Shown one piece after another: positions 12,667 to 48,907 of a stretch of DNA of 64,000 bases (positions are counted from its first letter, which is position 1; every line of letters begins with the position of its first letter). Below the pieces are notes generated by a model, which worked only from the letters and a program-made list of their open reading frames with translations, was not told the origin of the DNA and searched no databases. The DNA comes from an uncultured Bacilli bacterium (GTDB lineage: Bacteria; Bacillota_I; Bacilli_A; RF39; UBA660). Both the position numbers and the translations under genes were made by a program. Location of the stretch: assembly GCA_947631035.1 (NCBI GenBank), contig CANRJW010000002.1:3233-67232 (forward strand). The letters run 5' to 3'.

Positions 12667-12741
12667 GGAGCTGGTGGTCAGACTTGAACTGACAACCTGC
12701 TGATTACAAATCAGCTGCACTGCCAATTGTGCTACACCAGC
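12667..12741 (-). tRNA. tRNA-Thr (anticodon TGT)
   Basis: Hand-folded cloverleaf GCTGGTG..GCTGA-TTTGTAA-TCAGC..GTCAG-TTCAAGT-CTGAC..CACCAGC-T-CCA; CCA is encoded. Confidence 0.8.
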
Positions 12742-12863
12742 ATAAATATATCCAGTTCTCTTACTGCGGAACTGGCAAGAACAGGTTTTGTTGTACTATA
12801 ATTACACATTAATATACAGAGGAACTGCATTTAAAGTGTGCTGTGAGGACCTAAAAATTTATT

Positions 12864-13415
12864 TTACTTTTCAGGGTAGTAAGGTTCAACAACAATGTTT
12901 GCCCAGTACCTACGTTCAGCAGCTTTTGACATAAAATCTTTAATGTTAGGAGAAGACATTGCTTTATAACTTATAAACTTAATTCCCAGGCCTTCATATT
13001 CACCCCATTTTCCAGTTCGTCCTTTCTCATACGTTGCAGGATTTTCATCCCAATCTAGATCAATAGGCATATCGTACTCGTCCATTAACCTGTTCCATTC
13101 CTCAATGTCCGCTGGATGTTCTGAATCATATAAGAAGCTATACTCATCCCTCCAATCGCTTCTCATGGGATCACTTACATACTTTCGTGTATTTGTTGCA
13201 TAAACTCTGATGCCCAGCTCACGAGCAACCTCTTTTGCTTCTTCACAAAGTCGCTCTGCATCTCGCTTGGTGTCACACAGGTAGCTAATTTTATAACCAC
13301 CCGCAGCAGAGCGAATATCTTCTGGATCCTGAATGCTCCAACCTGCATGCTTCATAAGCTCATAAACATACTTCTTTGTTCCATTTTTTGCTCTGCTTGT
13401 CCAATTGTCTTCCAT
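12864..13415 (-). CDS. hypothetical protein
   Basis: 183 aa ORF. Confidence 0.5.
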   Translation of the reverse strand: MEDNWTSRAKNGTKKYVYELMKHAGWSIQDPEDIRSAAGGYKISYLCDTKRDAERLCEEAKEVARELGIRVYATNTRKYVSDPMRSDWRDEYSFLYDSEHPADIEEWNRLMDEYDMPIDLDWDENPATYEKGRTGKWGEYEGLGIKFISYKAMSSPNIKDFMSKAAERRYWANIVVEPYYPEK

Positions 13416-13485
13416 TTATCCTGCTCCTTTAATTCTTATTCTATATTTATTATATCATATCTCAATTAAGAAATCAACTATATTT

Positions 13486-15150: not shown

Positions 15151-15182
15151 TCTTCACCTCTTGCTTATACCTAACCATTTAA

Positions 15183-15377
15183 TTACAGGTCCTCTAACAG
15201 GTATTTTTTAACACCCTCTTTGCAAATATCTGAAGAAATATAACTATTTGTTTGGCATTCCTTCAGTTTAGTACACAGAAAGCAAAGTTCAAGGTCCACA
15301 CTTGAACATAGATAGTCAACCATGTCATCAACTGTTTCGTATAAGTGATATTTATTTAGTACCTCAAAACGTGTCAT
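15183..15377 (-). CDS. hypothetical Cys-containing small protein
   Basis: 64 aa ORF. Confidence 0.3.
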   Translation of the reverse strand: MTRFEVLNKYHLYETVDDMVDYLCSSVDLELCFLCTKLKECQTNSYISSDICKEGVKKYLLEDL

Positions 15378-15496
15378 TTAGGCTACCTTATAAAAATAAA
15401 CAGTATGGGTGAGATTAAATTATGCATCCTACTTCTATTGGATACTATAACATAAATTTCTAAGGTACCTTAAACATCTAAATTAAAAAGTTTTCT

Positions 15497-15886
15497 TTAA
15501 TACGAAGGAAAAGAACATAGGCCTTCGTCTATATCTTCTTCACTCCTTCCAAGAATGCTAGCCACGTTCTTGATATCTCTCACTGTCAACCTACCCACTC
15601 TTCCGCCAAGATTCATGTGATTAAGATCCACCAACTTATCTAGTCTCGCGGTGGATGGTTTTCTTAAACCTGCCTCTCTCCAATCGATGATCTTATAGTC
15701 GCCTGAATCCCATTCTCTAACCCCGTGACTAGTAATAGGAGCAACATTTAATATAATTCCAGCGCTGTTATCAAGAATGATAACTGGCCTAGTTTTGTAC
15801 CTTGGTGTGAGCAGGTCTTCGTCTTCTTCGTAGGGAATAGCCCCGATGTAAATATCATAAACTCTCAAGGCAAGGGGCCCTCCCAA
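15497..15886 (-). CDS. MazF/PemK-family endoribonuclease toxin homologue
   Basis: KTRPVIILDNSAGIILNVAPITSHG matches the PemK/MazF core (RPxhhhs...hh.P.TS); length is also typical. Confidence 0.6.
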   Translation of the reverse strand: MGGPLALRVYDIYIGAIPYEEDEDLLTPRYKTRPVIILDNSAGIILNVAPITSHGVREWDSGDYKIIDWREAGLRKPSTARLDKLVDLNHMNLGGRVGRLTVRDIKNVASILGRSEEDIDEGLCSFPSY

Positions 15887-16068
15887 AGATCATCATAAAG
15901 GCCGTCGTCTTCCGGGTAATAGCATTCCTTGGGGAGGACAGTGTAGTGATAAGTGTGCTTGACAAAGTTTTTTGCGACTCTCTCCGCTTCCTCTATCACT
16001 GCGTCTTCATTAAGCATGTCCTCGTTCATACTTTTTGCTTCTTCCCAAATGTTTGGCATCATATGCAA
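15865..16068 (-). CDS. small acidic protein upstream of and overlapping the MazF-like gene (candidate cognate partner)
   Basis: 67 aa, acidic, with a 22-nt overlap onto the MazF-like start. Confidence 0.35.
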   Translation of the reverse strand: MHMMPNIWEEAKSMNEDMLNEDAVIEEAERVAKNFVKHTYHYTVLPKECYYPEDDGLYDDLWEGPLP

Positions 16069-16089
16069 CTCCTAATTTTACATACATTA

Positions 16090-16164
16090 TGGTGTGAGTG
16101 AGGAGACTTGAACTCCCGACTCCTTGATTAAAAGTCAAGTGCTCTACCACTGAGCTACACCCAC
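16090..16164 (-). tRNA. tRNA-Lys (anticodon TTT)
   Basis: Fold GTGGGTG..CTTGA-CTTTTAA-TCAAG..GGGAG-TTCAAGT-CTCCT..CACTCAC-A-CCA. Confidence 0.8.
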
Positions 16165-16231
16165 ATAAGATTTGACAGGGGCTGCCAGGACGGGTTGCAG
16201 TGCAGGGGGCGTCCTGACAGTTTGTCAAATT

Positions 16232-16314
16232 TGGTCACCGCGAAGGGATTTGAACCCTTACGATCTCTCACTGGATCCTAAATCCAGCGTGTCTGCCAGT
16301 TTCACCACGCGGCG
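16232..16314 (-). tRNA. tRNA-Leu (anticodon TAG), type II
   Basis: Fold CTGGA-TTTAGGA-TCCAG with a long variable arm and T-arm AAGGG-TTCAAAT-CCCTT; CCA is encoded. Confidence 0.7.
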
Positions 16315-16421
16315 ATATAGCATACATGACTTGCGGGGCGCAATCATATCTATTTTATCTGCGATCTCTGAATATTCAGCGCTCTTCGTTAAGCTACTCC
16401 GCCGACGTCATGCATGCTTAA

Positions 16422-16511
16422 TGGTGGAAGAGGAAGGAATTGAACCTCCTCGATGTCTGATCAGGACATCTCTGCACTTTTACAGATGCAGTATCAATCT
16501 GCGTCTCTCCC
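16422..16511 (-). tRNA. tRNA-like element, type-II-like, anticodon arm unresolved
   Basis: Acceptor GGGAGAG/CTCTTCC, T-arm GGAGG-TTCAATT-CCTTC and CCA are present, but the internal region (CTGCA-TCTGTAAAAG-TGCAG plus a GATGTC..GACATC hairpin) does not give a canonical 7-nt anticodon loop. Confidence 0.35.
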
Positions 16512-16514
16512 ATC

Positions 16515-16601
16515 TGGTGGGCCGGGATGGAGTTGCACCACCGGTGTTTCTGATGTAACGGATTTACAGTCCGCCCCAATCGCTTCTATGGATACCGACC
16601 C
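16515..16601 (-). tRNA. tRNA-Tyr (anticodon GTA), type II
   Basis: Fold GCGGA-CTGTAAA-TCCGT, acceptor GGGTCGG/CCGGCCC-A-CCA; the T-loop TGCAACT is unusual. Confidence 0.6.
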
Positions 16602-16726
16602 ATGAAAAAGAAAAATGACAGGGGCTGGGCTTGCACCAACTTGCGTTTCACGTCCTTACTCCCCCACTCCACTTTGGTGACTAGCCAGAATTGCACTGAC
16701 ATGGGAGCACCTATCAAATTTCCTGC

Positions 16727-16806
16727 TGGTGGCTGGGGGTGGACTTGAACCACCGACATACGGATTTTCAGTCCGTCGCTCTGACCAAAAACTGAGCTAT
16801 CCAGCC
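16727..16806 (-). tRNA. tRNA-Phe (anticodon GAA)
   Basis: Fold GCTC-AGTTTTTGGTCA-GAGC, ACGGA-CTGAAAA-TCCGT, GGTGG-TTCAAGT-CCACC, then CCA. Confidence 0.8.
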
Positions 16807-16862
16807 ATGTTGGCAATTTTCTATGTATCGCATCTCAGCCTGCCATGATACTTCACTTACGG

Positions 16863-16937
16863 TGGTCCGCCTGCCAGGATTTGAACCTGGAATAAAAGAT
16901 TAGAAGTCTCTTGTGATATCCATTTCACTACAAGCGG
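16863..16937 (-). tRNA. tRNA-Arg (anticodon TCT)
   Basis: Fold AGAGA-CTTCTAA-TCTTT, T-arm CCAGG-TTCAAAT-CCTGG, a C1:G72 acceptor, then CCA. Confidence 0.75.
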
Positions 16938-17085
16938 ATATTTATACACCTGACAGGATTCTTAGTACCTGCATCTCCTCCCCGTTTCCTCAGTGATAAG
17001 TTGAGTACTCAGGGGTGGGGTCCTCTTTAACGTTAAACGACAGGTGTTGAGATTTCACTAGGTTATCAAGCTAGCTACTTTCTCA

Positions 17086-17161
17086 TGGTACGGGGTGACA
17101 GACTTGAACTGTCGACTTCCTGCTTGTAAGGCAGGTGCTCTCCCAGCTGAGCTAACCCCGC
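17086..17161 (-). tRNA. tRNA-Val (anticodon TAC)
   Basis: Fold GCTC-AGCTGGGA-GAGC, CCTGC-CTTACAA-GCAGG, GACAG-TTCAAGT-CTGTC, then CCA. Confidence 0.8.
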
Positions 17162-17214
17162 ATGTGTTCGCTTCTCTTACTGTGGAAGCTTTGAAGGACA
17201 GGTTCGTTTTACAT

Positions 17215-17291
17215 TGGTGATGCCTATGCGGCTCGAACGCATAATCTTCAGCTTGAGAGGCTGACGTGTTATCCAGTTCCACTAAGGCACC
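17215..17291 (-). tRNA. tRNA-Glu (anticodon CTC)
   Basis: Fold TCAGC-CTCTCAA-GCTGA, ATGCG-TTCGAGC-CGCAT, acceptor GGTGCCT/AGGCATC-A-CCA. Confidence 0.6.
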
Positions 17292-17364
17292 TGGTTGGAG
17301 AGAAGAGAGTTGAACTCTTACCTGAGGAGCCACAATCCTCCGTGCTACCGTTACACCACAGACC
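17292..17364 (-). tRNA. tRNA-like element with a His-type (GTG) anticodon arm and an unpaired acceptor (possible pseudo-tRNA)
   Basis: Arm GAGGA-TTGTGGC-TCCTC and T-arm AAGAG-TTCAACT-CTCTT with CCA, but the 5' GGTCTGT cannot pair with the 3' CTCTCCA. Confidence 0.3.
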
Positions 17365-17400
17365 ACATATATAAATACAAGAAAGAAGTTTGGTTAATCT

Positions 17401-17607
17401 TTACTCAGCTACAGGCAATTCCCTTTCACTTTCAATACTATAAAGAATACCTTTATTGTTGTGTACGAGAATCCTGTGCATAGCTCTACGAGCAGAATGA
17501 ATGTCTTTGCCTTTATGCACAAGCCTGACTGTTTCATCCTTTCCATGCTCACCAATGGAGCCTCTAAGAATGGTAATAGTAAATTCAAACGACTTTCTTC
17601 TTAACAT
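17401..17607 (-). CDS. hypothetical small protein
   Basis: 68 aa ORF just downstream of the tRNA block. Confidence 0.35.
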   Translation of the reverse strand: MLRRKSFEFTITILRGSIGEHGKDETVRLVHKGKDIHSARRAMHRILVHNNKGILYSIESERELPVAE

Positions 17608-17703
17608 ATTTTACTTAAACACCCCTTCTTGTTTCCTCTATGAATATTATAGTATCAAAGAAAAAGTAAATCTACTAATCTCTGCAGTACTTCTTCAGTT
17701 AAT

Positions 17704-17958
17704 TTACTCGGTTACCCTTCTCTTCATTTCAGCAAAAGCAGCTTCAGCTAATTCATCGCCAAGAGCTCCCTTTACAATGCCTTCAAGAAGCTGAATATAT
17801 TCATCCTTCTCCCCTTCATACATTTCAGGTTCAGGACCTTTGTACCCTTCATAAGAGCAATTTGCGTAGCCCGAGCAGGGACCTGCGTAACGGTTTTTCT
17901 CATCCCGATCTGCAAATTGACAAGTCAAGCAACCACCATTCATATAACACTTATCCAT
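17704..17958 (-). CDS. hypothetical Cys-rich small protein
   Basis: 84 aa with CxxC, C...C..C and C.Y.G patterns. Confidence 0.4.
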   Translation of the reverse strand: MDKCYMNGGCLTCQFADRDEKNRYAGPCSGYANCSYEGYKGPEPEMYEGEKDEYIQLLEGIVKGALGDELAEAAFAEMKRRVTE

Positions 17959-17962
17959 ATAT

Positions 17963-18151
17963 TCACCTCACGTAAACTGTTAAGATATTTTTACCCATCG
18001 AATCAGTAGTGACACTTTCTACTTCGCTGTGTATGAATTCAGTAGGAATGTCCAGAACGGAGCTGCAGAGTGTCAGTGATCCTCCAGTCTTACCAATGAA
18101 GAATAATCGGCAGGACTTTTCGAGACCCTCCAGTAAATTCTCAACAAGCAT
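17963..18151 (-). CDS. hypothetical small protein
   Basis: 62 aa ORF. Confidence 0.3.
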   Translation of the reverse strand: MLVENLLEGLEKSCRLFFIGKTGGSLTLCSSVLDIPTEFIHSEVESVTTDSMGKNILTVYVR

Positions 18152-18273
18152 TATCTCACCTCAAATCATAACAGCAACACTGATAACAGGTTCACCATCT
18201 ACATCAATATCAGCCGCAAAGTCTATAACTTCGTTATCATCAATAACATCAAGAAGATCTTTGAATAGCATAT

Positions 18274-18501
18274 TTACCTCACCTGAATCCAATTATGAAT
18301 ATGGCAACCTGCAACGTTCGTTTCTTCGATCTCGGTCACGACTTCTTGAAAATCATCACCTGCGTAGTTGACGATCACCTCACTGTCGATTGCCTTATCA
18401 TCGTAGCTGACGATCTTGGCACCTGCGGTTTCGAGTAGTTCAAGTACTACCTGAAGGGATTCCTTGTAGTAATTTTCAACCTGAATCTTGTACTGTTTCA
18501 T
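18274..18501 (-). CDS. hypothetical small acidic protein
   Basis: 75 aa ORF. Confidence 0.4.
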   Translation of the reverse strand: MKQYKIQVENYYKESLQVVLELLETAGAKIVSYDDKAIDSEVIVNYAGDDFQEVVTEIEETNVAGCHIHNWIQVR

Positions 18502-18527
18502 CTTCTTACCTCACCCACATTTTCTAC

Positions 18528-18566
18528 ATTTATTATATAATAAAGGGGAAGAAGAATCAACTACTT
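18528..18566 (-). promoter_or_regulatory. promoter-module variant
   Basis: tattatataat...gaatcaactac; upstream of 18274..18501 and downstream of tRNA-Trp. Confidence 0.45.
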
Positions 18567-18589
18567 TCTGTAGTGAGATGAAAAATTTA

Positions 18590-18665
18590 TGGCAGGAGAG
18601 CAGGGATTCGAACCCCAGTCCACGGTTTTGGAGACCGTTATCCTAGACCACTAGACGACTCTCCT
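18590..18665 (-). tRNA. tRNA-Trp (anticodon CCA)
   Basis: Fold AGGAGAG..GTC-TAGTGGTCTAG-GAT..ACGGT-CTCCAAA-ACCGT..TTCGAAT..CTCTCCT-G-CCA. Confidence 0.75.
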
Positions 18666-19518
18666 ATTTAACAAATGTTCTTTTATTTGATCTTTTACTT
18701 TCTACAAAATGAGTTTTGATGTAAATCTCTCTATGAGCCTCATAATTTCTGTTATTATGGAAAGAACCAAAATCGGGAATTGCTTCATTAAGGGGAAGAC
18801 CACCTTCAAGATTCTTCATGTAGGGATGCTCATTAGATTCAATAAGAGGCCTACCATTGAGATTTATAAATTCTTCTATATCCATGTGATCTATTGGTTG
18901 CCCATCTATTATATAAATCATATCTGGGGTGTTTATCTTCTTACCAGCTTGATGATCAGCAGAAATAGTAATTGAGGATAATTGGGTTCTATTCTCATAT
19001 ACAAGATTCCAAATTATATCAAACCAATTAAAATCAAAAGAGCTTACCCTAGCGTAAATATCCTTACCTGAACCTCCTCTATATTTATCACTCATTCTAA
19101 CCCTTAAGAACTCTTGATTCATTCTATTATTTAATTCTTCCCACAATGCCTTACAAGTTGCAATATAATTATCATCAATATCATTTGCAGGTTTAGGATC
19201 AACTACTATAGATAATTCATTTAGGAATATTTTAAGAATATCTTTATCCATTCCAAATTTATGGGTGGCTTCAAAAGAATCATCCATACCAAGAACACCT
19301 CCAGCAAGGCATTCTAAACATTCCTTCATTAGGGGTTTAATATTTTGGTTTGAATGATCTAAAAACCAATTAAGAAACCATGGATCATTAAATAAATCCA
19401 CCATATTAGTAGCAAAGGATTCTTTTACATCATGTAGAATATAAGGATGAATGGATCTACATTCAAATATTTCACCATCGTTACGTACCATGTAAGGTGT
19501 TCTTTCTTTTAACCGCAT
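18664..19518 (-). CDS. hypothetical protein, paralog of 26851..27669
   Basis: Shared blocks TPYMVRNDGEIF vs TPYMLRNDGKVI, NQEFLRVR vs NQEFLRFR, and RVSSFDFNWFD vs RVSSKGFDWSD. Confidence 0.5.
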   Translation of the reverse strand: MRLKERTPYMVRNDGEIFECRSIHPYILHDVKESFATNMVDLFNDPWFLNWFLDHSNQNIKPLMKECLECLAGGVLGMDDSFEATHKFGMDKDILKIFLNELSIVVDPKPANDIDDNYIATCKALWEELNNRMNQEFLRVRMSDKYRGGSGKDIYARVSSFDFNWFDIIWNLVYENRTQLSSITISADHQAGKKINTPDMIYIIDGQPIDHMDIEEFINLNGRPLIESNEHPYMKNLEGGLPLNEAIPDFGSFHNNRNYEAHREIYIKTHFVESKRSNKRTFVK

Positions 19519-19532
19519 TTATATTCTCCTAT

Positions 19533-19579
19533 AAGATAAAAATGAGAGGCCCCATATGCAGAAACACACGAAGCCTCTC
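19533..19579 (-). terminator. rho-independent terminator closing the tRNA operon
   Basis: 7-bp stem GAGAGGC/GCCTCTC followed on the minus strand by ATTTTTAT, placed between the tRNA block and the 284-aa gene. Confidence 0.55.
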
Positions 19580-19852
19580 TTGGATAAAGAAATATGGAAA
19601 GAATTCGGAAAAATCTACATCAATTAACTATATAGAGATTATTCAGTTTTCTATAATGTTTATACCAAAACTTAAAGTGTTTCATAAATAATCTCCTAAG
19701 GTTGATGTACAACTAATTTAGCAATAGTTCTGCTTTCTTTTTGATCAGAAGAAGCAGAAAGAAACTGATCGGTTAAAACGGACCGATGTTCCGCAACAAG
19801 CTGAGTTACGAGGGTGTCGTGCCGTACAACTTGTTAAGGTAGTTGTCAACCA

Positions 19853-19938
19853 TGGTCGGGGCAGTGGGACTTGAACCCACACGTCTTAAAGACCACGGAT
19901 TTTAAGTCCGTTCCGTCTGCCAATTCCAGCATACCCCG
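19853..19938 (-). tRNA. tRNA-Leu (anticodon TAA), type II
   Basis: Fold ACGGA-CTTAAAA-TCCGT, variable arm GTCTT..AAGAC, T-arm GTGGG-TTCAAGT-CCCAC, acceptor CGGGGTA/TGCCCCG-A-CCA. Confidence 0.7.
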
Positions 19939-20029
19939 ATATTGAAGCCCTTCGCTCCTGTAGGTCTGCCAGGACCATCATTTGCTAGGCTTCTCAGCAG
20001 TTCAATTTCTCTTCTGGCAAAGGGTGCTG

Positions 20030-20102
20030 CACATCCCTGTGGGATTCGAACCCAGACCTCCACCCCGCTTGGGTGGTACTCTACCCTTTAAGCTACGGGA
20101 TT
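20030..20102 (-). tRNA. tRNA-like element (canonical GGGTTCGAATCCC T-arm, atypical anticodon and acceptor)
   Basis: D-arm-like TAGCTTAAAGGGTAGAG and a CCACC-CAAGCGG-GGTGG hairpin lacking U33; the acceptor pairing is only partial. Confidence 0.3.
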
Positions 20103-20293
20103 ATAAAAATTTATAGGCTGTTTATCTCATTCCATTTACTACTGCTTCTCTAATCTAAATATTACTAAATGTCAGGTTGTACCTCTTGGCTATCTTGAAC
20201 CTGTTCATATTCAGCTTCGTAGCACCTACAAAGTTATTCTTTATATCTCTATTTTATTTTTTAACCAAAAGAGATATTTGAGAAAAACATTAC

Positions 20294-20370
20294 TGGTGGT
20301 CCACCTCGGGCTCGAACCGAGAACCGGCTGTTTATGAGACAGCTGCTCTAACCTATTGCGCTAATGGACC
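20294..20370 (-). tRNA. tRNA-Met (anticodon CAT), elongator type, or lysidine-modified Ile
   Basis: Fold GCTGT-CTCATAA-ACAGC, CTCGG-TTCGAGC-CCGAG, acceptor GGTCCAT/GTGGACC-A-CCA; no initiator hallmarks. Confidence 0.75.
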
Positions 20371-20374
20371 ATAA

Positions 20375-20463
20375 TGGACGGTGAAGGACTTGAACCTCCG
20401 GCGACCAGCGATTGCAGATGTTACTCATACAACCTCCCGCTCTACCAACTAAGCTAACCGCCC
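20375..20463 (-). tRNA. tRNA-like element of 89 nt with no canonical anticodon arm (intron-containing or degenerate); CCA not encoded
   Basis: Good acceptor GGGCGGT/ACCGTCC, D-arm GCTT-AGTTGGTA-GAGC and T-arm GGAGG-TTCAAGT-CCTTC, but the 38-nt interior (GGAGGTTGTATGAGTAACATCTGCAATCGCTGGTCGCC) gives no 5-bp stem with a 7-nt loop. Confidence 0.35.
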
Positions 20464-20569
20464 ATAAATACTAATGCATGTTAGTAAAGAATTTTGTAAG
20501 AAGTACTTTTAGCTCACAGATTGTGATTGTCAATTTCCACCACGTGAAGGTAGTACCTCATCGGAAATC

Positions 20570-20640
20570 TACAGGGTGGAGGAGTCGAACCCCAATCGCC
20601 GGATATAAGCCGGGTGCAACGACCGCATCACCTACCCTGC
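20570..20640 (-). tRNA. tRNA-Ile (anticodon TAT); CCA not encoded
   Basis: Acceptor GCAGGGT/ACCCTGT with a G1.U72 pair, anticodon arm CCGG-CTTATAT-CCGG, T-loop TTCGACT. Confidence 0.55.
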
Positions 20641-38974: not shown

Positions 38975-39367
38975 TTATTTCACCCCCACAAAATGGCTTT
39001 CTTTTACATAACCAACAACCTTAGATTGTTCAGTAATGGTCTGATCTTTCTTATCTACTATAAGCTGAACTTCTTCAACATAAACTGATTCTTGATAGTT
39101 ATCCTCAAAGGGTGCAATAAGCTTGAGAAGTGCTCCTAGAGTTACACAGCTTACAGCGGGACTACCTTGATACCTGTAATAGGTAGCAAGAGTGTTGTCT
39201 CCCTTAAGAAGCTTCACCTGCTTGCCATCACTAAGGCCGCAGTAAAAGGACCCATCAGCAGCATTAAGATAGATACATTTCTCATCGATCTTTCTTACAA
39301 TACACTCTCTACCGGAGTGCCAGACGTGATCACCTACTTCAAGTCAGTTTCCAGTCATATCTAACAT
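38975..39367 (-). pseudogene. gene with an in-frame TGA at codon 8 (interrupted gene or stop-codon readthrough candidate)
   Basis: Strong RBS GAGGTGAT plus ATG at 39367; the reading frame MLDMTGN-TGA-LEVGDHVWHSGREC... then continues in frame into the 80-aa ORF. The only alternative start is a weak GTG at 39217. Confidence 0.4.
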
Positions 39368-39379
39368 CTTTATCACCTC

Positions 39380-39805
39380 TTAGAAGTTGTAGTCGAAGTA
39401 CTCGCGGCGGCCGGCCGTGACCTTCTTACCAAGGTACATGAAAGCACCTTCTTTCTTGCTCCACCGCACTGTAAGAACACTGCCGTTCGGATCTCTCTCG
39501 TAGTTATATTCCAAGTCTTCGTTATTAGTACAGCAGGCACCGAAACCACCAGGAACAAATTCTGGCTTACAGCCCTTCTTAAGCGCTGCCTTATCCCGCT
39601 GAAGCGTTAAGCTACACGGGGTCCTTTTAATAACGGTGTAAGCTTCAGCATCGGAGTAGTAATGAACAGTAACGCCATCGCCCACTTCTAGCCCCTGATA
39701 AAACTCAGCATAAATAGGTCTTTCTTGAGCAACCTTCTTATTGTAATCACAAGTCCAGGGAAGAGCTTCCAACCTAGCTTTTAATTCCTTTTCACTCATC
39801 TTCAT
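39380..39805 (-). CDS. hypothetical protein
   Basis: About 141 aa; start chosen at the Met preceded by GAGGT. Confidence 0.45.
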   Translation of the reverse strand: MKMSEKELKARLEALPWTCDYNKKVAQERPIYAEFYQGLEVGDGVTVHYYSDAEAYTVIKRTPCSLTLQRDKAALKKGCKPEFVPGGFGACCTNNEDLEYNYERDPNGSVLTVRWSKKEGAFMYLGKKVTAGRREYFDYNF

Positions 39806-39956
39806 ACTTAAATACCTCACACTTGATTCTTACTTATATTATATACGATATAGTAAAAAATAGCAACTAATATTAAATAGTAATTGAGGATTTTAATAAA
39901 AATTCAGTTTTTAGATAGCTAAATTTAATGGAAATAAAATTTAAGGGGTTTGTTTT

Positions 39957-40565
39957 ATGAAAGCATGCGAGGTGATGAGTTTACTTCACATAACTAGGCC
40001 CACTCTGTGTAAGTATCTTAAAGTAGGTTATATAAAAGCGACTAAGACGGCCACAGGTCAATATATTTATGATGATGATTCAGTATATGCTTTTATAGGT
40101 CAAAAGAAGCATAAAGAAAATAAGATAGTAGTTTCATATGCCAGGGTATCCACACAGAATCAAAAAGATCAACTAATAAGTCAAAATCAACGAATATATG
40201 AATCCTGCATATCAAGAGGGCTTAATCTAGACATGCAATTATCTGATATCAAGTCTGGACTATCTGAAAACAGGGAAGGATTGCAGAAACTGATCAGGCT
40301 GGTCATTGAAAATAAAGTTAAGTTGATAGTTATTGAGAATAAAGATAGGCTAGTTAGGTTTGGATATGAAATATTGGAATCTGTATTTAGGTATTTCGGT
40401 ACTTCAATTTTAGTGCTGAATGACTCCATCCAAAATAAATCATATGAACAAGAGTTAACCGATGACCTAATTTCAATTATTCATTATTTTTCTATGAAAT
40501 CTTATTCACATAGAAGAAAATTAAATAAAATAAGAAGAGAATTAGAGGAAAAAGAAGGAGACTAA
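39957..40565 (+). CDS. tnpA: IS607-family transposase TnpA (serine recombinase with an N-terminal MerR-like HTH)
   Basis: The HTH MSLLHITRPTLCKYLKVGYI is followed by the catalytic block VVSYARVSTQNQKDQL. One of only two plus-strand genes in the window. Confidence 0.8.
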   Translation: MKACEVMSLLHITRPTLCKYLKVGYIKATKTATGQYIYDDDSVYAFIGQKKHKENKIVVSYARVSTQNQKDQLISQNQRIYESCISRGLNLDMQLSDIKSGLSENREGLQKLIRLVIENKVKLIVIENKDRLVRFGYEILESVFRYFGTSILVLNDSIQNKSYEQELTDDLISIIHYFSMKSYSHRRKLNKIRRELEEKEGD

Positions 40566-40568
40566 GTA

Positions 40569-41960
40569 GTGGAAAATTTGATTACACTTAAAATCAAATA
40601 TTCATTATCAAGCAGTATAGATAGGGATACTCTACTCTCTTTTATAAAAAACTACAATAATGTTTATAGATTTACAGCTAATAGATTATTAGAAAATCCT
40701 AAACTAGGTACCAAAAGAATCACTGAACTGCAAAACAACTTGAATAATATTTTTATAGATTCTCACCTTAAGAACTCCTGCATATTTGATGCTAAAACAT
40801 TAATTAAGCAATCAGAACAGGGCGATAAAATAATATTTGGTGGCAAGCAGTTATTGAATAAAAGGAATAAACATCAAATATCTAATGAAGAATGGAAGCT
40901 TCAAAGATTGGTTCCTCTATGTAGTGTTGGAGAAGCAGATAAGAAGGCTAATAGGAAATTTACTATCTTATCCTCATCTCAAATATTATTCAAACCCAAC
41001 AAAAGCACTCACATTGTTCTTAACTTATGTAGTTTAAGAAAGAATTGGAAGTCTCAGTTGGAAAGACTTTCGTTACTGCAGAATCAAAAAGTATTACCTA
41101 TAACCTACAGATTAGATCTGGATTATATTTATATTACATATGATTGTAATCTCACATCCACGAGTAAGTCTAAGAGTAAAACACTGGATAGAATACTATC
41201 TATAGATATGAATCCAAACTATTTAGGATATGATATATGTGACTGGAGCGGTGAATATCCAAATAGAATAGTTAAATCTGAGGTGCTATCTCTTAAACCC
41301 TTAAATGATAAAGACAGTAGCTTAAAAAGTAAGAGCTTGAATAGCTCCTCAAAAGAGAGGGCATGTATTACAGACAAGAGAGAATATGAGGTAATTCAAT
41401 TAGCGCATCAGATAGTCAAGCAAACAATTCATTATGGGTGCGAACTAATTGCGATTGAAGACTTAGTTATTCTTCCCGGCAACCTAAACAAAGGAAAGAA
41501 ACTAAATAAATTATGCAATAATCAATGGTGTAGAGATAAGTTTGTACGAGTACTGGAAAAACTGTGCAAGCTAAGTAACATTAAATTATTAAAAATGCCT
41601 GCAAATTATTCAAGCTACACCGGTAATTTGTGTTATAGAAAATATAACTTACCTGATATGTGCTTATCAGCTCTTGAAATAGGTAGAAGAGGTTATGAAT
41701 TTAACCATCAATATCTATTAAAAGATAAAGATATAAAAAAGAATATAGTTTTAAACAACTCCCAAGAATTTGTATCTAATGCAAAACAGTCGTTGGAAGA
41801 ATTAGGGTTGCATTTAGGTATAGATTCAGTTGACTTAAAGCAAATATTCAAGGAAGTTAAAAACTCTAAATTGAGATATAGAGTTCAGCTAGATGAAAAT
41901 CAATGCTGTTTTAGGAAATTCTATAAAAAGAAATATATAGATTTATACAGGTTTGTATAG
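40569..41960 (+). CDS. tnpB: TnpB-like RuvC-fold protein (IS605/IS607 OrfB; OMEGA-type RNA-guided nuclease family)
   Basis: RuvC-I LSIDMNPNYLGY, RuvC-II IAIEDL, a degenerate zinc-finger region (YSSYTGNLC...) and RuvC-III-like PDMCLSALEIGRRG; sits 4 nt downstream of tnpA. Confidence 0.7.
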   Translation: MENLITLKIKYSLSSSIDRDTLLSFIKNYNNVYRFTANRLLENPKLGTKRITELQNNLNNIFIDSHLKNSCIFDAKTLIKQSEQGDKIIFGGKQLLNKRNKHQISNEEWKLQRLVPLCSVGEADKKANRKFTILSSSQILFKPNKSTHIVLNLCSLRKNWKSQLERLSLLQNQKVLPITYRLDLDYIYITYDCNLTSTSKSKSKTLDRILSIDMNPNYLGYDICDWSGEYPNRIVKSEVLSLKPLNDKDSSLKSKSLNSSSKERACITDKREYEVIQLAHQIVKQTIHYGCELIAIEDLVILPGNLNKGKKLNKLCNNQWCRDKFVRVLEKLCKLSNIKLLKMPANYSSYTGNLCYRKYNLPDMCLSALEIGRRGYEFNHQYLLKDKDIKKNIVLNNSQEFVSNAKQSLEELGLHLGIDSVDLKQIFKEVKNSKLRYRVQLDENQCCFRKFYKKKYIDLYRFV

Positions 41961-42018
41961 GTCTGAATAGAATTTACATCTTATATGCTCCTTTGATATT
42001 AGTATTTGTGTATTTTTC

Positions 42019-43122
42019 TTATGGTGTAAGTCCAGAATCAGGTCCGCTGCCGCCGTCCTGAATGGAATTGAAGTAGTCGTTGATGCCGCCGGAGAGGTCT
42101 CCGCCCATCGAACTGTCGCTGCCGAGACGATCCATCGCTTCCTGCTGCGCCTGATCGAAGCTGTCGCCATAGTACGTACTCCCGTCGTTGATGTTGCCGC
42201 TGTTATCGCCGCTGCTCCCACCGTTACCGCTGCCTGTCGGAGGCGGAGAGTACTTGGGCGGGGTATCGGGATCGGACGGAGCGTCATTGTCATTCTTCGG
42301 CCAATCCATATTGGGCACATAGAAGGACGGATTTTCCGCTTCTTCGACGCTGTCCTCGAACGCGAGGAAGACGGCCGAGACGGTGATGTTGCCCTGCACG
42401 TCAAGATCCTGCCTGTAGGCTTCGGTGACGCCGTCGGACCAACCGACGAAGATGTGCTCGCTGTCTCCGATCGCGAGGACGGCGGGCGCGTCTTCCCCTT
42501 CCGTGACGATGAGCTCCTGTGCGAGCGCGGGCTCTTCGGACCAATCGTCGGTGTACATGACGATCGAGCCGCCCTTATTCGCCGTGTAGGTCACGGTGTA
42601 CGTTCTCGGGATATATTCGCCCATGAGAAGTTCCGCGCCGCCGGGGATGACGTCCGCGACATAGAGCGAACCGACGGTCAACATCGAGGTGCCGAAGAAG
42701 ACGCCGACGCCGAAGGTGATGACGAGCGCCGCAGACACTGCGAGCTTGACGAGCATGTGATCGACCGAGCCGAGGGCCTTCATCGTGTCTTCCCTCTGCT
42801 TCATCGCGACGTAGGAAGCGTCGTTTTCGAGCTCGACCATCGTGAGCACACGCTCTTCGAGGCCGAGACGGTCGACGCGCTGAGCGATCGCTTTGGTCGT
42901 GGGACGGTAGAGCTTCAAATAAAGGAGCGGCGTCAGCCCCGCAAGAAGGGCCGCGAACACGCCGAGGCCGATCCAAAGCCCCGCCTTAAACCCTGCAAGC
43001 CAGCAGATAAGCACGGTGAGCGAAAGTGCGCCGAAGGCGATGCTTCCGCTGAGCAGAAATGCTTTCAAGATGCCTTCACGGGCGATCCGTGCACGGTACT
43101 TTTTAAAAACATTGTCAGCCAT
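42019..43122 (-). CDS. foreign-origin membrane protein (about 60% GC; three N-terminal TM helices, Gly/Ser/Asp-rich C-terminal tail)
   Basis: Strong compositional contrast with the rest of the window; both strands show the stop-free spurious ORFs typical of high-GC DNA. The phage-type TTGCTAAATT motif lies upstream at 43173-43182. Confidence 0.55.
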   Translation of the reverse strand: MADNVFKKYRARIAREGILKAFLLSGSIAFGALSLTVLICWLAGFKAGLWIGLGVFAALLAGLTPLLYLKLYRPTTKAIAQRVDRLGLEERVLTMVELENDASYVAMKQREDTMKALGSVDHMLVKLAVSAALVITFGVGVFFGTSMLTVGSLYVADVIPGGAELLMGEYIPRTYTVTYTANKGGSIVMYTDDWSEEPALAQELIVTEGEDAPAVLAIGDSEHIFVGWSDGVTEAYRQDLDVQGNITVSAVFLAFEDSVEEAENPSFYVPNMDWPKNDNDAPSDPDTPPKYSPPPTGSGNGGSSGDNSGNINDGSTYYGDSFDQAQQEAMDRLGSDSSMGGDLSGGINDYFNSIQDGGSGPDSGLTP

Positions 43123-43175
43123 TGTTGTTACCTCCTCACAAATTTTTTATGTTAAATAGGTAGTAGTCACATAAT

Positions 43176-43709
43176 TTAGCAATCATTTAGTATGTTCTTA
43201 TAAACCACATATTGCATAGAAACTGCATGAATATTCTCTTCTGTATCCTTTATATCCACTGTACGAGATGGTGTCTCATAGAGAAACATAAAGCCCTCAT
43301 CGAGATTATCTAAATTTCTAATGAAAGTATCTGCATTACCGTCAATATCAACCCTAGTAACAAAAGCATAATCACAGAAAGGAAGTAGAGTATTATAGAC
43401 CATCCCACCACCTATTACCATTGCTTTGTCTACAAGATCGTTTTTAGTAATATAGTCAGATAGTTCTTTTATATTTGTTACATGAACTACACTTTCCGGT
43501 AGTTTTTCATCTTCAGGTGCAATAACTATATTTAATCTATTCTTCAGAGGCTTACCGCCTGGCAGGGAATGTAAAGTATTTAACCCCATTATTACAGGTT
43601 TGTAAGATGTATTAAGAACAAAGCTTTGCATATCTTCAGGAATGTTGAAGAGAAGTTTTCCATTCTTTCCAATACCCCAATTCTTATCTACACAGACAAT
43701 TGCGTTCAT
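43176..43709 (-). CDS. folA: dihydrofolate reductase
   Basis: MNAIVCVDKNWGIGKNGKLLFNIPEDMQSF matches the DHFR N-terminal NADPH/folate-binding signature; 177 aa. Confidence 0.8.
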   Translation of the reverse strand: MNAIVCVDKNWGIGKNGKLLFNIPEDMQSFVLNTSYKPVIMGLNTLHSLPGGKPLKNRLNIVIAPEDEKLPESVVHVTNIKELSDYITKNDLVDKAMVIGGGMVYNTLLPFCDYAFVTRVDIDGNADTFIRNLDNLDEGFMFLYETPSRTVDIKDTEENIHAVSMQYVVYKNILNDC

Positions 43710-44655: not shown

Positions 44656-45486
44656 TCAAATTGCAACCGGAATTTTATGCTCAAACTTGTTCGGCTCATA
44701 CCCTTCTAACTTAAAACTATCTACTGTAAAATCATAGAAATTTTTAATATCAGGATCTACAATAAGTTTGGGGGCAGGCTTGGGTTCGTTTTTAAGTACC
44801 TCTTCTGTTAAAGGAATATGCCTATCATAAATATGAGCATCAGCAATAACGTGCACTAATTCTCCAGGCACTAAACCACTTACTTGCGCCATCATAATGA
44901 GAAGAATAGAATATTGAACTACATTCCAGTTATTTGCTGTTAACATATCATTTGAACGTTGATTGAGGATACCATTCAATACATTCCCTGAAACATTAAA
45001 CGTCATGGAATATGCACATGGATATAATCCCATTTCATGCAAATCCTGAAAATTATAAATGTTAGTTAAGATTCTTCTACTTGCAGGGTTGTTTTTCAAA
45101 TCAAATAAGACTCTATCAACTTGATCAAACATTCCTTCTTTATACTGATGCTTAACACCAAGTTGATATCCATATGCTTTGCCTATTGAGCCACTTTCAT
45201 CTGCCCAGCTATCCCAAATATGAGATCCCAAGTCGTGAATGTTATTGGATTTCTTCTGCCAAATCCAAAGTAATTCATCTATGCAGGACTTAAAAGCTGT
45301 TCTTCTTAAGGTTAAAATAGGAAATTCTTCCTGTAAATTATATCTATTAACAATACCAAATTTCTTAACCGTGTGAGCCGGTGTACCATCATCCCAGCGG
45401 GGCCTTACCTCAAGGTTGGTATCCCAGGTTCCATTATCTATAATATCTCTGCAGTTCTTAATAAATATTTCATCTGCTTTACTCAT
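44656..45486 (-). CDS. thyA: thymidylate synthase (ThyA, folate-dependent)
   Basis: RRILTNIYNFQD..GLYPCAYSMTFNV contains the catalytic Cys of the PCH motif; the DAHIY block and overall ThyA architecture are present (276 aa). Confidence 0.9.
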   Translation of the reverse strand: MSKADEIFIKNCRDIIDNGTWDTNLEVRPRWDDGTPAHTVKKFGIVNRYNLQEEFPILTLRRTAFKSCIDELLWIWQKKSNNIHDLGSHIWDSWADESGSIGKAYGYQLGVKHQYKEGMFDQVDRVLFDLKNNPASRRILTNIYNFQDLHEMGLYPCAYSMTFNVSGNVLNGILNQRSNDMLTANNWNVVQYSILLIMMAQVSGLVPGELVHVIADAHIYDRHIPLTEEVLKNEPKPAPKLIVDPDIKNFYDFTVDSFKLEGYEPNKFEHKIPVAI

Positions 45487-46122: not shown

Positions 46123-47208
46123 TTATTCAAAGGGTACGAACACGTTAGCACCCTCACCTGTCATAACATCAGGCAACTGACCATCCCATGCTTCTAGGTA
46201 TTCAATATACTTCAAATAATCTGAAATAACTTTAATTTCCGCTTCTGTCTTGCCTTCAAAGTCAATTTCATAATTCACACCCACCTGGACAAGCTCGCCA
46301 CTTTCGTTTTCTTCCATAACAGGTGTTTCTTTGATAGTGAATCCAAGCATACGTGCAACTTCGACTGATTTTGCCTTAATTGCATCTGCTTCAGCCTTTG
46401 CTGCTAATAGCTGTGCCTGTGCATCACCCTCAGCTTTTGCAATTGCCGCTTCTGCTGCAAGCCTTGCAACTTCAAGTTCTTGTTCAGCTTGGATAATTGC
46501 TCTTTCTTTTTCGTACTCAGCTTGCAACTTCTTCTGCTCTGCAACCATCTTATCTTCAACGGTCTGTTCAAAAGTATCTGAAAAGTCAATATTTGAAAGA
46601 ACAACTGTAGTTACATCTACGTAATAACTTTCATCAATTGCTTCCTTAACAAACTGCTCCACCTCGGGGGAAATCTCAGCTCTCTTCTCAATAATTTCCA
46701 TTGCTGAATACTTGGAAAGAACCGACTTTGTTCTCTCAGCAACAACGCTTTCAATTCTATTTTCCAAAGCATCCAAATTACCGTATTGTGTTGCAATGTC
46801 GATAACCTTATCTTGCTGAATTTGGAACTGAACGGTCATTGCAATATCCATTGTCTGAGCATCTTTTGAATATGCTTGTGTGGTAATATCTGTATTCTGT
46901 ACCTTAGCATCATAATACTCGTACTTATCTGTCATCCAGAAATCAAAATAAGTACCTGCATTCCTTGTACCCTCAATTTCACCCATGTGCTTTACGACAG
47001 AAATCTCACCAGCTTCAACGGTGTGAAATGACCATGGAATACACAAAAACAGTACTGCAAATACTAGTGCAGTTGCGGCTCCTGCCCACTTACAAGCTGC
47101 TGCTCCACGGTCCCATTCACCGTCCATTACAGTACCTGCGATAAGTGCGGCAATACCGCCAAAGCACAAAACACCAAATATGATTCCTAAAGCTATTCTG
47201 AAAACCAT
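46123..47208 (-). CDS. SPFH/band-7 (prohibitin/HflK-like) membrane protein
   Basis: N-terminal TM, an SPFH core (VVKHMGEIEGTRNAGTYFDF...) and an Ala/Glu-rich coiled coil (AEQELEVARLAAEAAIAKAEGDAQAQLLAAKAEADA). Confidence 0.7.
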   Translation of the reverse strand: MVFRIALGIIFGVLCFGGIAALIAGTVMDGEWDRGAAACKWAGAATALVFAVLFLCIPWSFHTVEAGEISVVKHMGEIEGTRNAGTYFDFWMTDKYEYYDAKVQNTDITTQAYSKDAQTMDIAMTVQFQIQQDKVIDIATQYGNLDALENRIESVVAERTKSVLSKYSAMEIIEKRAEISPEVEQFVKEAIDESYYVDVTTVVLSNIDFSDTFEQTVEDKMVAEQKKLQAEYEKERAIIQAEQELEVARLAAEAAIAKAEGDAQAQLLAAKAEADAIKAKSVEVARMLGFTIKETPVMEENESGELVQVGVNYEIDFEGKTEAEIKVISDYLKYIEYLEAWDGQLPDVMTGEGANVFVPFE

Positions 47209-48057: not shown

Positions 48058-48240
48058 TTATTCGAGTAATTGATGTATTTTTTGAGGCTCCACCTCACAG
48101 AGGTTGTAATCACGGTCTCGCATAACAGGAGATGGGTTCAATAGCTTTCTCTTTAATCCAAAATATAGTAAATTAAGACCAATGATGACAGCGACTGCTA
48201 AAGCAATTATTAATGCAACTTCAATCACTACTACCATCAT
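48058..48240 (-). CDS. small membrane protein
   Basis: 60 aa with a single TM helix. Confidence 0.35.
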   Translation of the reverse strand: MMVVVIEVALIIALAVAVIIGLNLLYFGLKRKLLNPSPVMRDRDYNLCEVEPQKIHQLLE

Positions 48241-48907
48241 CTACAGGTCCTTCAACCTTAAGGTTTTTCTCTATCTTTATCTCACCACTATCTACCTGAG
48301 ACATAAACTTAGCTGCATGATCAATTGCAGAAAGATTAGGATCATCCTTAATATCGGCTTCTAGTTGCTTTTTGTATTCATCTATTGCTTTCATATAGGC
48401 TTCTAAAAGCTTATTCTTTTCTTTTTCTTTAGCTTTATCAAATCTTTTATCTATTTCAAGTCCGATTGTTTCTAGTGTCATGCCATCCAGAAGATCTACT
48501 TCTTGTTGTAAATAAAAAGCAACCGCACCTGTAAATGTAGATATAAAAGAGCCACCTTCCAGTGTCTGGTACATCATGTTGATTTCAGTGCTTCTAGGGT
48601 GTATAAATTCCCTGTTAGGAAGGCTTGCATCTTTTTGTCTAACTAAGGTGAATCCCTTAGAATGACTAATAATAGGGTTAATATAAATTCTTACATCAGG
48701 AGTGCTAGACTTTGTTTGAAATCTGACACATACCATTCTATATGGGTAACCAATCTGAGGAGCTGATAAGGACTGTAACTTATTTTCTAATAAAGTAGAT
48801 TTTAATTCCCCGGCAATTCTAAAAGCTAATTTCCTATCTTCTTCTAGGTTAATTTCATCTGCTCTTTCTATAAACTTTTCTAAATCAGTAATAATATCCA
48901 TTTTCAC
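48221..48907 (-). CDS. hypothetical protein
   Basis: 228 aa ORF. Confidence 0.45.
   Translation of the reverse strand: MKMDIITDLEKFIERADEINLEEDRKLAFRIAGELKSTLLENKLQSLSAPQIGYPYRMVCVRFQTKSSTPDVRIYINPIISHSKGFTLVRQKDASLPNREFIHPRSTEINMMYQTLEGGSFISTFTGAVAFYLQQEVDLLDGMTLETIGLEIDKRFDKAKEKEKNKLLEAYMKAIDEYKKQLEADIKDDPNLSAIDHAAKFMSQVDSGEIKIEKNLKVEGPVDDGSSD

Follow-up and report, generated by a model that had tools for sequence, protein, structure and literature searches.

In a 64,000-nucleotide stretch of phage DNA (contig CANRJW010000002.1, positions 3,233 to 67,232; hereafter the window) two adjoining genes run against an otherwise unidirectional gene array, which raises the question of what kind of element they form and whether its parts may still function. 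An earlier note on this DNA had proposed a phage-borne insertion sequence (IS) of the IS607 family with a serine-recombinase TnpA and a TnpB. This proposal holds. The segment from about 39874 to 41983 (2.1 kb) is an autonomous IS607-family insertion sequence of the ISCaje4 group, located in an intergenic spacer of the phage and antiparallel to the phage genes. Based on the match of TnpA to the model NF033518, the fold of the second protein, sequence signals that recur throughout its family and a homologue in ISCaje4, the identity of the locus as an IS607-family TnpA/TnpB/omegaRNA element is stated with high confidence.

Orientation was judged from a survey of open reading frames (ORFs) of at least 90 amino acids. 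ORF1 (39957..40565; 202 amino acids, ATG start) and ORF2 (40569..41960; 463 amino acids, GTG start) are both located on the plus strand. All other long non-overlapping ORFs belong to the minus strand, where they form an essentially unbroken array; the remaining plus-strand ORFs either overlap longer minus-strand ORFs or fall in an ORF-poor region at 15.9-18.7 kb. GC skew and AT skew change sign (to positive) solely at 40-42 kb, where the GC content is 30% as compared to about 36% in the phage and 60% in the next kilobase. The ORF list, the skew flip and the strand of the tRNA genes are all in agreement with the earlier statement that the two ORFs oppose every other gene. The 14 tRNA genes (Thr, Lys, Leu x3, Phe, Arg, Val, Glu, His, Trp, Ala, Met, Ile; 12666-20640, minus strand) are all encoded on the phage coding strand and account for the ORF-poor stretch at 12.6-20.6 kb. 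A megablast search with positions 38-44 kb of the window gave no match among 50,697 phage records, which indicates that the host phage is not represented among GenBank phages.

A serine transposase and a divergent TnpB

ORF1 (tnpA) codes for an IS607-family serine transposase in which a MerR-like helix-turn-helix (HTH) at the N terminus is followed by a catalytic domain of the resolvase type at the C terminus. It matched the NCBIfam model NF033518 (IS607 transposase) with 156.4 bits (cutoff 110) over model positions 3-186 of 187 and Pfam Resolvase with an E value of 2.3e-16 (residues 58-190), while residues 5-44 gave weak matches to MerR HTH models of Pfam. In addition, matches were obtained to PHROG 6620 'transposase' (E 1.6e-46) and to the TnpA catalytic domains of ISC1904, ISC1926 and IS1535 in the PDB (E 1e-22 to 1e-10). 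The predicted layout of an HTH and a serine-recombinase core was thus confirmed by the NF033518, Resolvase, MerR and PDB matches. The catalytic serine is S65 (codon 40149-40151) in the sequence VSYARVSTQ, which contains the YARVS motif. ORF2 starts on the same strand with a GTG (40569), 3 nt after the stop of tnpA (40565), and this tnpA-tnpB layout was also found in loci L002 and L078, in phage vB_CjeM_WX1 (WX1) and in about 20 other loci.

ORF2 is a tnpB-like gene whose product is a Cas12/TnpB-type RuvC nuclease without the zinc-finger/TNB domain. Sequence searches with this protein in PHROGs gave no match, and those in Pfam and the PDB, which are taken up below, were empty as well, so that a comparison of folds was needed. 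In Foldseek the full-length protein matched Cas12f, Cas12k, ISFba1 TnpB and ISDra2 TnpB with a probability of 1.0. The alignments extended over 390-500 columns, most of the protein, and included the N-terminal half, which we read as WED/REC in a full-length TnpB/Cas12f architecture. TM-scores were low (0.22-0.32), probably owing to differing domain orientations, and the WED/REC match is thus one of local 3Di and sequence similarity.

Weak sequence signals were found throughout the family. Among 33 relatives of about 50% identity, 31 matched TIGR01766 (TnpB-related domain, residues 268-333; best E 6e-7), 30 matched TIGR01765 (TnpB N-terminal domain, residues 6-67; best E 4e-5) and 23 matched a Cas12b model. 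Some relatives carry a precomputed match to the Pfam family PF27229.1. In a profile search of 1.8 billion representatives the best 150 matches were strong family members only and canonical TnpBs were not reached; the link to the latter was therefore made with hhalign through the zinc-ribbon-bearing ISCaje1 TnpB of Campylobacter phage CP220 (residues 262-366, E 3.2e-5, probability 73%). Via the alignment of ISCaje1 TnpB to 9yyg, a solved TnpB-like (AI-designed) RNA-guided nuclease, IAIE297DL of ORF2 falls on the RuvC-II motif AVEDL, and NYSS349 corresponds to (F/Y)(P/T)SQ, the motif ahead of the zinc finger. The ISCaje1 protein of CP220 (L181:27555-28799) has retained its zinc ribbon and has a glycine at the RuvC-II Glu position (IICGDI vs AVEDL); to judge by this sequence, it may belong to a RuvC-II-rearranged or inactive clade.

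By its fold and by weak but family-wide sequence signals, ORF2 is a TnpB. The earlier designation as TnpB/OMEGA-like is therefore supported by Foldseek, TIGR01766, TIGR01765, hhalign and the ISCaje4 TnpB homologue. Its variant, a Fanzor-like protein, does not agree with the location of E297 on beta4 as in canonical TnpB, with the absence of a zinc finger or with the bacteriophage hosts. According to a further reading, ORF2 could be a RuvC nuclease which recognises DNA structures without an RNA guide, in the manner of a Holliday-junction resolvase, and the structures at its 3' end described below would be transposase-binding DNA or a terminator. RuvC resolvases, however, lack the N-terminal half that is included in the Foldseek alignments, and the TnpB N-terminal domain was detected in 30 of the 33 relatives. 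We consider this reading very improbable, and the RNA features of the locus, given in the next section, likewise argue for TnpB.

The catalytic candidates are D213 in SIDMNPN (codon 41205-07), E297 in IAIEDL (41457-59) and D363 in LPDMCLSALEIGRRG (41655-57). In the 33 relatives D213, E297, D363, E370, R373 and R374 were invariant. When 62 more diverse relatives with identities down to 29% were inspected, D213, N215, E297, S349, R373 and R374 were invariant, and D363 and E370 were kept at a frequency of at least 90%. D213 is placed at the end of beta1 (205-214) in the structure model, E297 at the end of beta4 (291-298), and D363 at the start of a long helix (363-383) which follows beta5 (339-344); in the model these are the canonical RNase H/RuvC positions. 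A direct comparison of sequences showed that D363-MC-LSALEI resembles the canonical RuvC-III motif D-x-NAAxNI with a one-residue insertion. To judge from the sequences, the RuvC D-E-D triad of ORF2 looks intact, and the assignment of SIDMNPN to RuvC-I, of IAIEDL to RuvC-II and of D363 to a RuvC-III-like position is backed by this conservation.

The earlier note had also described a degenerate zinc finger, and here the analysis differs. ORF2 contains no CxxC pairs, no Cys/His column is conserved in the 62 relatives, and beta5 and D363 are spaced by only 18 residues. Owing to the missing column and the short spacing, the zinc-finger/TNB domain is regarded as absent rather than degenerate. PF07282 (TNB/Zn ribbon) gave weak matches in 2 of the 62 relatives and was otherwise absent. 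The reported C-terminal extension of about 80 amino acids was recovered as residues 384-463, which form two helices and then a tail whose predicted local distance difference test score (pLDDT) is below 50 from residue 444 onwards.

Loss of the TNB/zinc-finger domain would be compatible with a protein that has been domesticated into a nuclease-independent, RNA-guided DNA binder, comparable to TldR repressors, or into a regulator of transposition, where the RNA would guide binding. The silence of Pfam TnpB models on ORF2 points in the same direction, and phages are known to carry derivatives of the TldR type (PMC10705468; bioRxiv 10.1101/2025.07.22.666180). TldRs are, however, defined by loss of the very residues that are invariant (D213, E297) or conserved at a frequency of at least 90% (D363, E370) in the present family of more than 1,000 clusters at 50% identity. 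Linkage to tnpA, the multi-copy state and recent movement fit a nuclease that serves transposon maintenance, and the flank 3' of the right end varies from site to site and does not match a fixed host promoter. A TldR-like function is thus held to be improbable.

A putative omegaRNA overlapping the end of tnpB

The putative omegaRNA scaffold comprises about 220 nt (~41766-41983, plus strand). It overlaps codons ~400-463 and the stop codon of ORF2 and ends at the transposon terminus, a layout known from TnpB omegaRNAs (PMC8612924, PMC10690162). The scaffold had been expected at 41900-42018; the covariance model, covariation and the hairpins H0 and H2 place it further upstream and mostly within the tnpB ORF. 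Its first part is hairpin H0 (41766..41827) with a 12-nt loop UCGUUGGAAGAA at 41790-41801 that is conserved at the nucleotide level. The scaffold core (41854..41983), delimited by a covariance-model match, consists of the covarying stem H1 (41862-68 pairing with 41879-85), the variable hairpin H2 (41886-41908) between H1 and P3, the conserved sequence UUUUAG (41909-14; UUUU(U/C)AG across relatives), the closing stem P3 (41914-24 pairing with 41967-77), which encloses the stop codon, and the tail AUCUUA (41978-83), which ends at the right end of the element.

The region 41700-41985 folds better than shuffled sequences (z = -4.5), and RNAalifold recovered two helices with compensatory changes from an alignment of 17 relatives. 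In a MAFFT alignment that was not fitted to structure (A4), the 18 pairs of H1 and P3 were paired in 93.8% as compared to 32-50% when the partners were slid by 1-3 columns; 13 of these pairs showed changes on both sides, and none of 500 shuffles reached any of the five measures used. The covariance model (R1) matched a single site in the window, the plus-strand segment 41854-41983 (110 bits, E 5.8e-14), and 77 further sites in the searched loci, each of which lies in coding orientation at the 3' terminus of a tnpB-like gene. The RNA of the window scores among the best of the 78 matches. In the alignment of all 78 matches, which was fitted to the model and hence leans towards structure, 92.2% of the cells were paired and 15 of 18 pairs were compensatory. 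One pair of H1 is formed by the last base of a Ser codon and the opening base of an Arg codon; it occurs as U-A (UCU...AGA) in 39 and as G-C (UCG...CGA) in 35 sequences. As both codon changes are synonymous, the constraint acts on the RNA and not on the protein.

Sequence and length of H2 differ from relative to relative, and MAFFT left this hairpin out of register. It was therefore scored per sequence and not by column (68 sequences, mean z -3.0, 85% below -1.64). The arms of H0 also differ in sequence and pair in 101 distinct relatives (mean z -2.5, 64% below -1.64), while the loop motif was kept in 108 of 122 distinct loci. This conservation suggests that the loop may be a site acting at the RNA level, e.g. 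in TnpB binding or processing. The loop sequence TCGTTGGAAGAA (41790-41801) corresponds to Ser-Leu-Glu-Glu codons and includes the Leu codon TTG, which is rare in AT-rich genomes. In Rfam, positions 39000-43500 gave two chance-level matches only and no family for the scaffold, RAGATH-18 included.

These features also bear on the resolvase-like reading of ORF2. A serine recombinase acting on double-stranded DNA needs no covarying hairpins up to 220 nt inside the element end. G-U pairs and strand-specific matches favour RNA over DNA, and there is no terminator-like site at the plus-strand 3' end. TnpB with an omegaRNA remains the preferred reading.

In OMEGA systems the guide is the DNA immediately 3' of the right end (PMC10690162, PMC8612924). 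Each insertion context has a sequence of its own 3' of the right end, and conservation is lost exactly past the terminus in five or more contexts. By analogy, we infer that the guide consists of 41984-~42003 (plus strand), a predicted flank-derived segment of ~16-20 nt (TATGCTCCTTTGATATTAGT). It had been proposed that the guide reads into the adjacent gene. The predicted segment is intergenic instead, as a 35-nt spacer precedes the stop codon of the neighbour (42019-42021).

Element ends, relatives and recent movement

The element had been assigned the span 39880-42018. It was found to extend from about 39874 (possibly 39840) to 41983 (possibly 41985). At the right end (boundary 41978..41985, plus strand) the sequence ...TTA that is shared throughout the family stops at 41983, and the subtype of the window adds TA at 41984-85. 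The window element, L173 and L076 have ...ACATCTTATA in common, followed by T, G and A, respectively; they are shared up to ...GAATTTACATCTTATA and diverge completely beyond. L002 and L078 likewise have ...ATATCTTAAT in common and then diverge, and conservation in 17 more distant relatives stops right after ...TAT(A/C)T(C/T)TTA. The window element ends in ...ATCTTA(TA); among relatives the termini ...TATATTTTA and ...TGTATTA occur. From these alignments the right end (RE) is placed at 41983, or at 41985 if the subtype-specific TA is counted.

The left end (LE; 39874..39956, plus strand) is non-coding. It contains subterminal repeats of the ATAG type and, for tnpA, a promoter-like site (TAGATA-17-TAAAAT, 39912-39940). 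ATAG motifs are located at 39877 and 39915 in LE (also at 39850 and 39860 if LE is longer) and at 41937, 41957 and 41967 near RE; such repeats are candidate binding sites of TnpA. The start of LE falls in a boundary zone (39838..39875) at ~39874 (AT|TA|AATAG, preferred) or at ~39840 (AT|TA|TATACG). From ATTAAA.AG onward it aligns with the LE of the L002 type. The window subtype is known from a single left-flank context. Element types found in several contexts begin with ATTAAC (L002/L078), ATTAAAT (L014/L053/L102/L109) or ATTTTTT (L016/L107), and L012, from a single context, has ATTAAAC at the corresponding position. The left ends of relatives start 77-107 nt upstream of the tnpA ATG; ATTAAATAG at 39872 in the window lies 85 nt upstream of it, and 39872-75 fits the ATTAA(A/C) terminus.

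The gene for a 141-amino-acid protein (PHROG 19789) next to LE has a sigma70-like promoter (TTGCTA-17-TATAAT, 39866->39838, minus strand). The region 39806-39881 upstream of this gene resembles a promoter and ribosome-binding-site module at L170:1047-1118 and L170:3645-3718; L170 is a related phage contig in which the module occurs at least twice. Because this module overlaps the zone where LE must fall, the left boundary is ambiguous. Position 39874 is preferred as first base since it spares the promoter that recurs in L170. The start near 39840 is an uncertain alternative based on a weak AT-rich similarity to the longer LE of the L002 type, and it was down-weighted as 39806-39881 is the repeated promoter module.

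Six left junctions, four of them independently delimited and two from a single context, all have AT before TA. The crossover dinucleotide is accordingly likely to be TA and the target, or transposon-adjacent motif (TAM), likely to be ATTA-like; the empty site predicted in silico is ...GCAACTAATAT-TA-TATGCTCC... No inverted 7- or 8-mer is common to 39830-39960 and 41880-41990. In a sister element of 88% identity (L002:9282-11415, L078:2282-4415) LE is ~32 nt longer than the preferred LE of the window and contains an internal ATTAAA resembling a terminus, which suggests that it may have captured flanking DNA through an alternative crossover site. An upstream ORF enters this sister element in both hosts, and in L002 the first bases of the element provide the TAA stop of that ORF.

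Relatives of ORF2 are numerous. A word-indexed search yielded 887, and an exhaustive profile search 1,396 clusters at 50% identity (E <=1e-3), 537 of them with E <=1e-30. The loci are overwhelmingly located on viral contigs (n=65 in IMG/VR), many of which are 130-673 kb in size with three to four copies each; the richness in phages refers to such counts of loci. Among phage records, tblastn detected homologues in 22 genomes, including Campylobacter phages and 14 records of Lak megaphages, the latter with as many as five places each. A few bacterial metagenome-assembled genomes (MAGs) also carry homologues. A tnpA match, mostly full-length, was present upstream in 21 of the first 75 loci, and 30 distinct full-length tnpA upstream regions were counted among all loci together; the remainder are solo tnpB genes. 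Such a mix of autonomous and non-autonomous copies is typical of IS607/IS1341-type elements.

L173 is 98.5% identical to the window element over 1.9 kb and L076 is 91% identical, both with right-flank contexts other than that of the window, while L002 and L078 (88% identical) represent two further phage contexts. As the 98.5%-identical copy, which comes from the same sample series as the window, is located in a different context, the element moved recently. A decaying, immobile relic with ORFs intact by chance and without current function would be compatible with the fact that every contig of this phage carries the element at the same site, so that no polymorphism within the phage is seen. Apart from the displaced copy, it is contradicted by two ORFs of full length relative to their relatives and by an RNA among the best of 78 matches. 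We regard a relic as highly unlikely, and the IS607-family element is taken to be a mobile one.

Several results weigh against this identification as a whole. No match to OrfB_IS605, HTH_OrfB_IS605 or another TnpB/OrfB model of Pfam was obtained with ORF2 or with its 33 and 62 relatives, and both single-sequence and profile searches against PDB sequences gave nothing for ORF2. The silence of OrfB_IS605 and Zn_ribbon is explained by a clade that is too divergent and has no Zn-ribbon/TNB domain; the check proposed earlier, in which missing OrfB_IS605 and OrfB_Zn_ribbon matches count as refutation, therefore misfires for a protein that is a TnpB. The TNB/zinc finger that is absent from ORF2 is present in characterised TnpBs. 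As its loss has been reported in some TnpB branches (PMC10691335), ORF2 is seen as a variant and not as excluded from TnpB. The ends are of the TA type and not the GG ends typical of IS607; since GG ends hold for most members of the family and not for all (PMC13565253, PMC10690162), membership is not precluded. Further, no empty site was found. Exact-protein look-ups with both flanking genes led to element-carrying contigs only, the exact left-flank pattern had no match in IMG/VR, and relatives of the 141-amino-acid neighbour were absent from IMG/VR; homologues of the latter (74-82% identity) occur in mosaic phages with other neighbours. For this reason left end, crossover dinucleotide and TAM are inferred. 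Finally, literature searches yielded no functional work on ISCaje4-like TnpBs, DNA cleavage without TNB included.

The gene next to RE (42019..43122, minus strand) has a GC content of 60% within the 36%-GC phage. Its product of 367 amino acids has N-terminal transmembrane helices, a weak InlB-B-repeat/Flg_new match and a tail rich in Gly, Ser, Asp and Pro. Over 1106 nt, positions 42044-43149 share 99.6% identity with bacterial-type contigs of 59% GC (L178-L180), in which the gene follows that of a surface protein of >3,297 amino acids with Flg_new and leucine-rich-repeat (LRR) domains; other homologues were found in Clostridia and Lachnospiraceae MAGs. In the phage gene the final 25 nt are AT-rich and differ from the bacterial copy. 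From the sequence, 42044-43149 appears to have been transferred very recently from host to phage, and the edge of this transfer is 60 nt from RE. Beside the insertion, the minus strand carries a nucleotide-metabolism block with genes for dihydrofolate reductase (43176..43709) and thymidylate synthase (44656..45486), and farther on genes for a Band_7 protein (46123..47208) and peptide deformylase (48221..48907).

Proposed mechanism and relation to known systems

In the proposed mechanism, TnpA would excise the element as a double-stranded circle, thereby regenerating the donor joint, and would reinsert it at a short AT-rich site with a crossover most likely at TA preceded by AT. Over its 3' ~220 nt the transcript of tnpB would fold into the H0/H1/H2/UUUUAG/P3 scaffold ending at RE, and read-through into the flank would supply a guide of ~16-20 nt. 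The TnpB-RNA complex may then cut the donor joint left empty, or the same site of a co-infecting relative without the IS, next to a TAM matching the target of the transposase. Recombinational repair from the occupied copy would restore or spread the element, i.e. result in RNA-guided homing. Excision by an IS607 serine transposase (TnpA-S) and donor-joint cleavage by TnpB have been described (PMC10690162); by analogy, expression and processing of the RNA, nuclease activity, TAM and a role in homing are predicted here. We lean towards a nuclease that is active in this way, with less confidence than for the identity of the locus as the TNB domain is missing and activity is a prediction from sequence.

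IS607/TnpB elements, phage-borne ones included, have been catalogued since 2010, and a role of IS607 TnpB in RNA-guided homing was shown in 2023-24; the element itself is ordinary in kind. Its branch is useful because it is large, rich in phages, not detected by Pfam and endowed with a guide-RNA family that is not in Rfam and probably with an AT-rich TAM. To our knowledge, the TNB/zinc finger is present in every TnpB with a solved mechanism. If the protein is active, the TNB domain would be dispensable for RNA-guided cleavage, and editors of ~460 amino acids with an AT-rich TAM would be gained. A nuclease aimed at the IS-less phage allele would also be a candidate driver of marker exclusion and of mosaicism between co-infecting phages. 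More tentatively, and with clearly less confidence than for nuclease activity, the ISCaje4-like group might be a distinct, phage-specialised OMEGA lineage, extending from ~80-kb phages to Lak megaphages, that is characterised by a TNB-less TnpB, an omegaRNA almost wholly within the C-terminal coding region, the invariant UCGUUGGAAGAA loop, TA-type ends and an ATTA-like TAM. Such a lineage could act as an 'intronless homing' drive, possibly dragging along flanking markers such as the host gene 60 nt from RE.

Among characterised systems, the CboIStron TnpA-S/TnpB (PMC10690162) and the TnpBs of ISFba1 and ISXfa1 (PMC11061315; 8iaz) share with the window element a serine-recombinase TnpA encoded upstream of tnpB, a scaffold that overlaps the 3' end of tnpB and stops at RE, last scaffold bases that hold the crossover dinucleotide (the likely TA in the window element), and the lack of terminal inverted repeats of at least 7 nt. 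ISFba1 TnpB (8iaz) matched the window protein in Foldseek with an E value of 2e-7. In contrast to these systems, the window TnpB has no C4 zinc finger/TNB, is ~80 amino acids longer (463 vs ~380) and is invisible to Pfam, and the element has TA-type ends (...TTA) and what appears to be an ATTA target, where those systems have GG and TGGG. The right-end RNA (reRNA) of ISFba1/ISXfa1 is derived from RAGATH-18, whereas the window RNA matches no Rfam family. Unlike CboIStron, the window element has no group I intron. ISDra2 TnpB and Cas12f (8h1j, 8exa, 7wju, 8dzj) differ more strongly: sequence identity is 8-17%, the window protein lacks the TNB/Zn ribbon, its partner is a serine recombinase and not a Y1 HUH enzyme, and there is no CRISPR array.

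The major TnpB clade RIIIr-4 has no C4 zinc finger, is virus-specific and is defined by an Asp-to-His exchange in RuvC-III (Altae-Tran et al. 2023, PMC10691335). The window family is also zinc-finger-less and found in viruses, but it has Asp at the RuvC-III-like position (D363, conserved to at least 90%) and its partner is a serine recombinase. Fanzor2 (mimivirus TnpB-like L79, 9b0l) was a weaker match than prokaryotic Cas12f/TnpB. In Fanzors the RuvC-II Glu precedes a zinc finger by six residues (PMC13565253), whereas the window protein has E297 on beta4 and no finger, and the hosts of its family are bacteriophages including Lak megaphages and not eukaryotic viruses. From TldRs, which are nuclease-dead TnpB-derived repressors, the window family is distinguished by conservation of D/E/D.

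The closest known system is ISCaje4 of the Campylobacter phage CP220, an element to which Timms et al. gave its ISfinder-style name in 2010 (PMC2853527). In CP220 the homologue of ORF2 is annotated as 'ISCaje4 transposase TnpB' within a repeat_region 'insertion sequence element ISCaje4'; an intact copy is present in WX1, where a complete 202-amino-acid resolvase is encoded upstream of TnpB. As in the window, a resolvase-type tnpA is followed by a tnpB of ~465 codons in a virulent phage. The TnpB proteins are 44% identical over 100% of their length and the TnpA proteins 59% (WX1) to 72% (CP220 fragment) identical; R1 matches the 3' end of ISCaje4 (L013, 98 bits; L087, 91 bits), and the right terminus ...TATATCTTA is also the same. 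The two differ in tnpA, which is truncated to 80 amino acids in the CP220 copy, in host lineage, the window host being a gut metagenome phage with Clostridia-like connections, and in that DNA similarity is found in patches only. By convention, copies of the same IS share 95% DNA identity. As the identity is far below this level, the window element represents a new IS of the ISCaje4 group.

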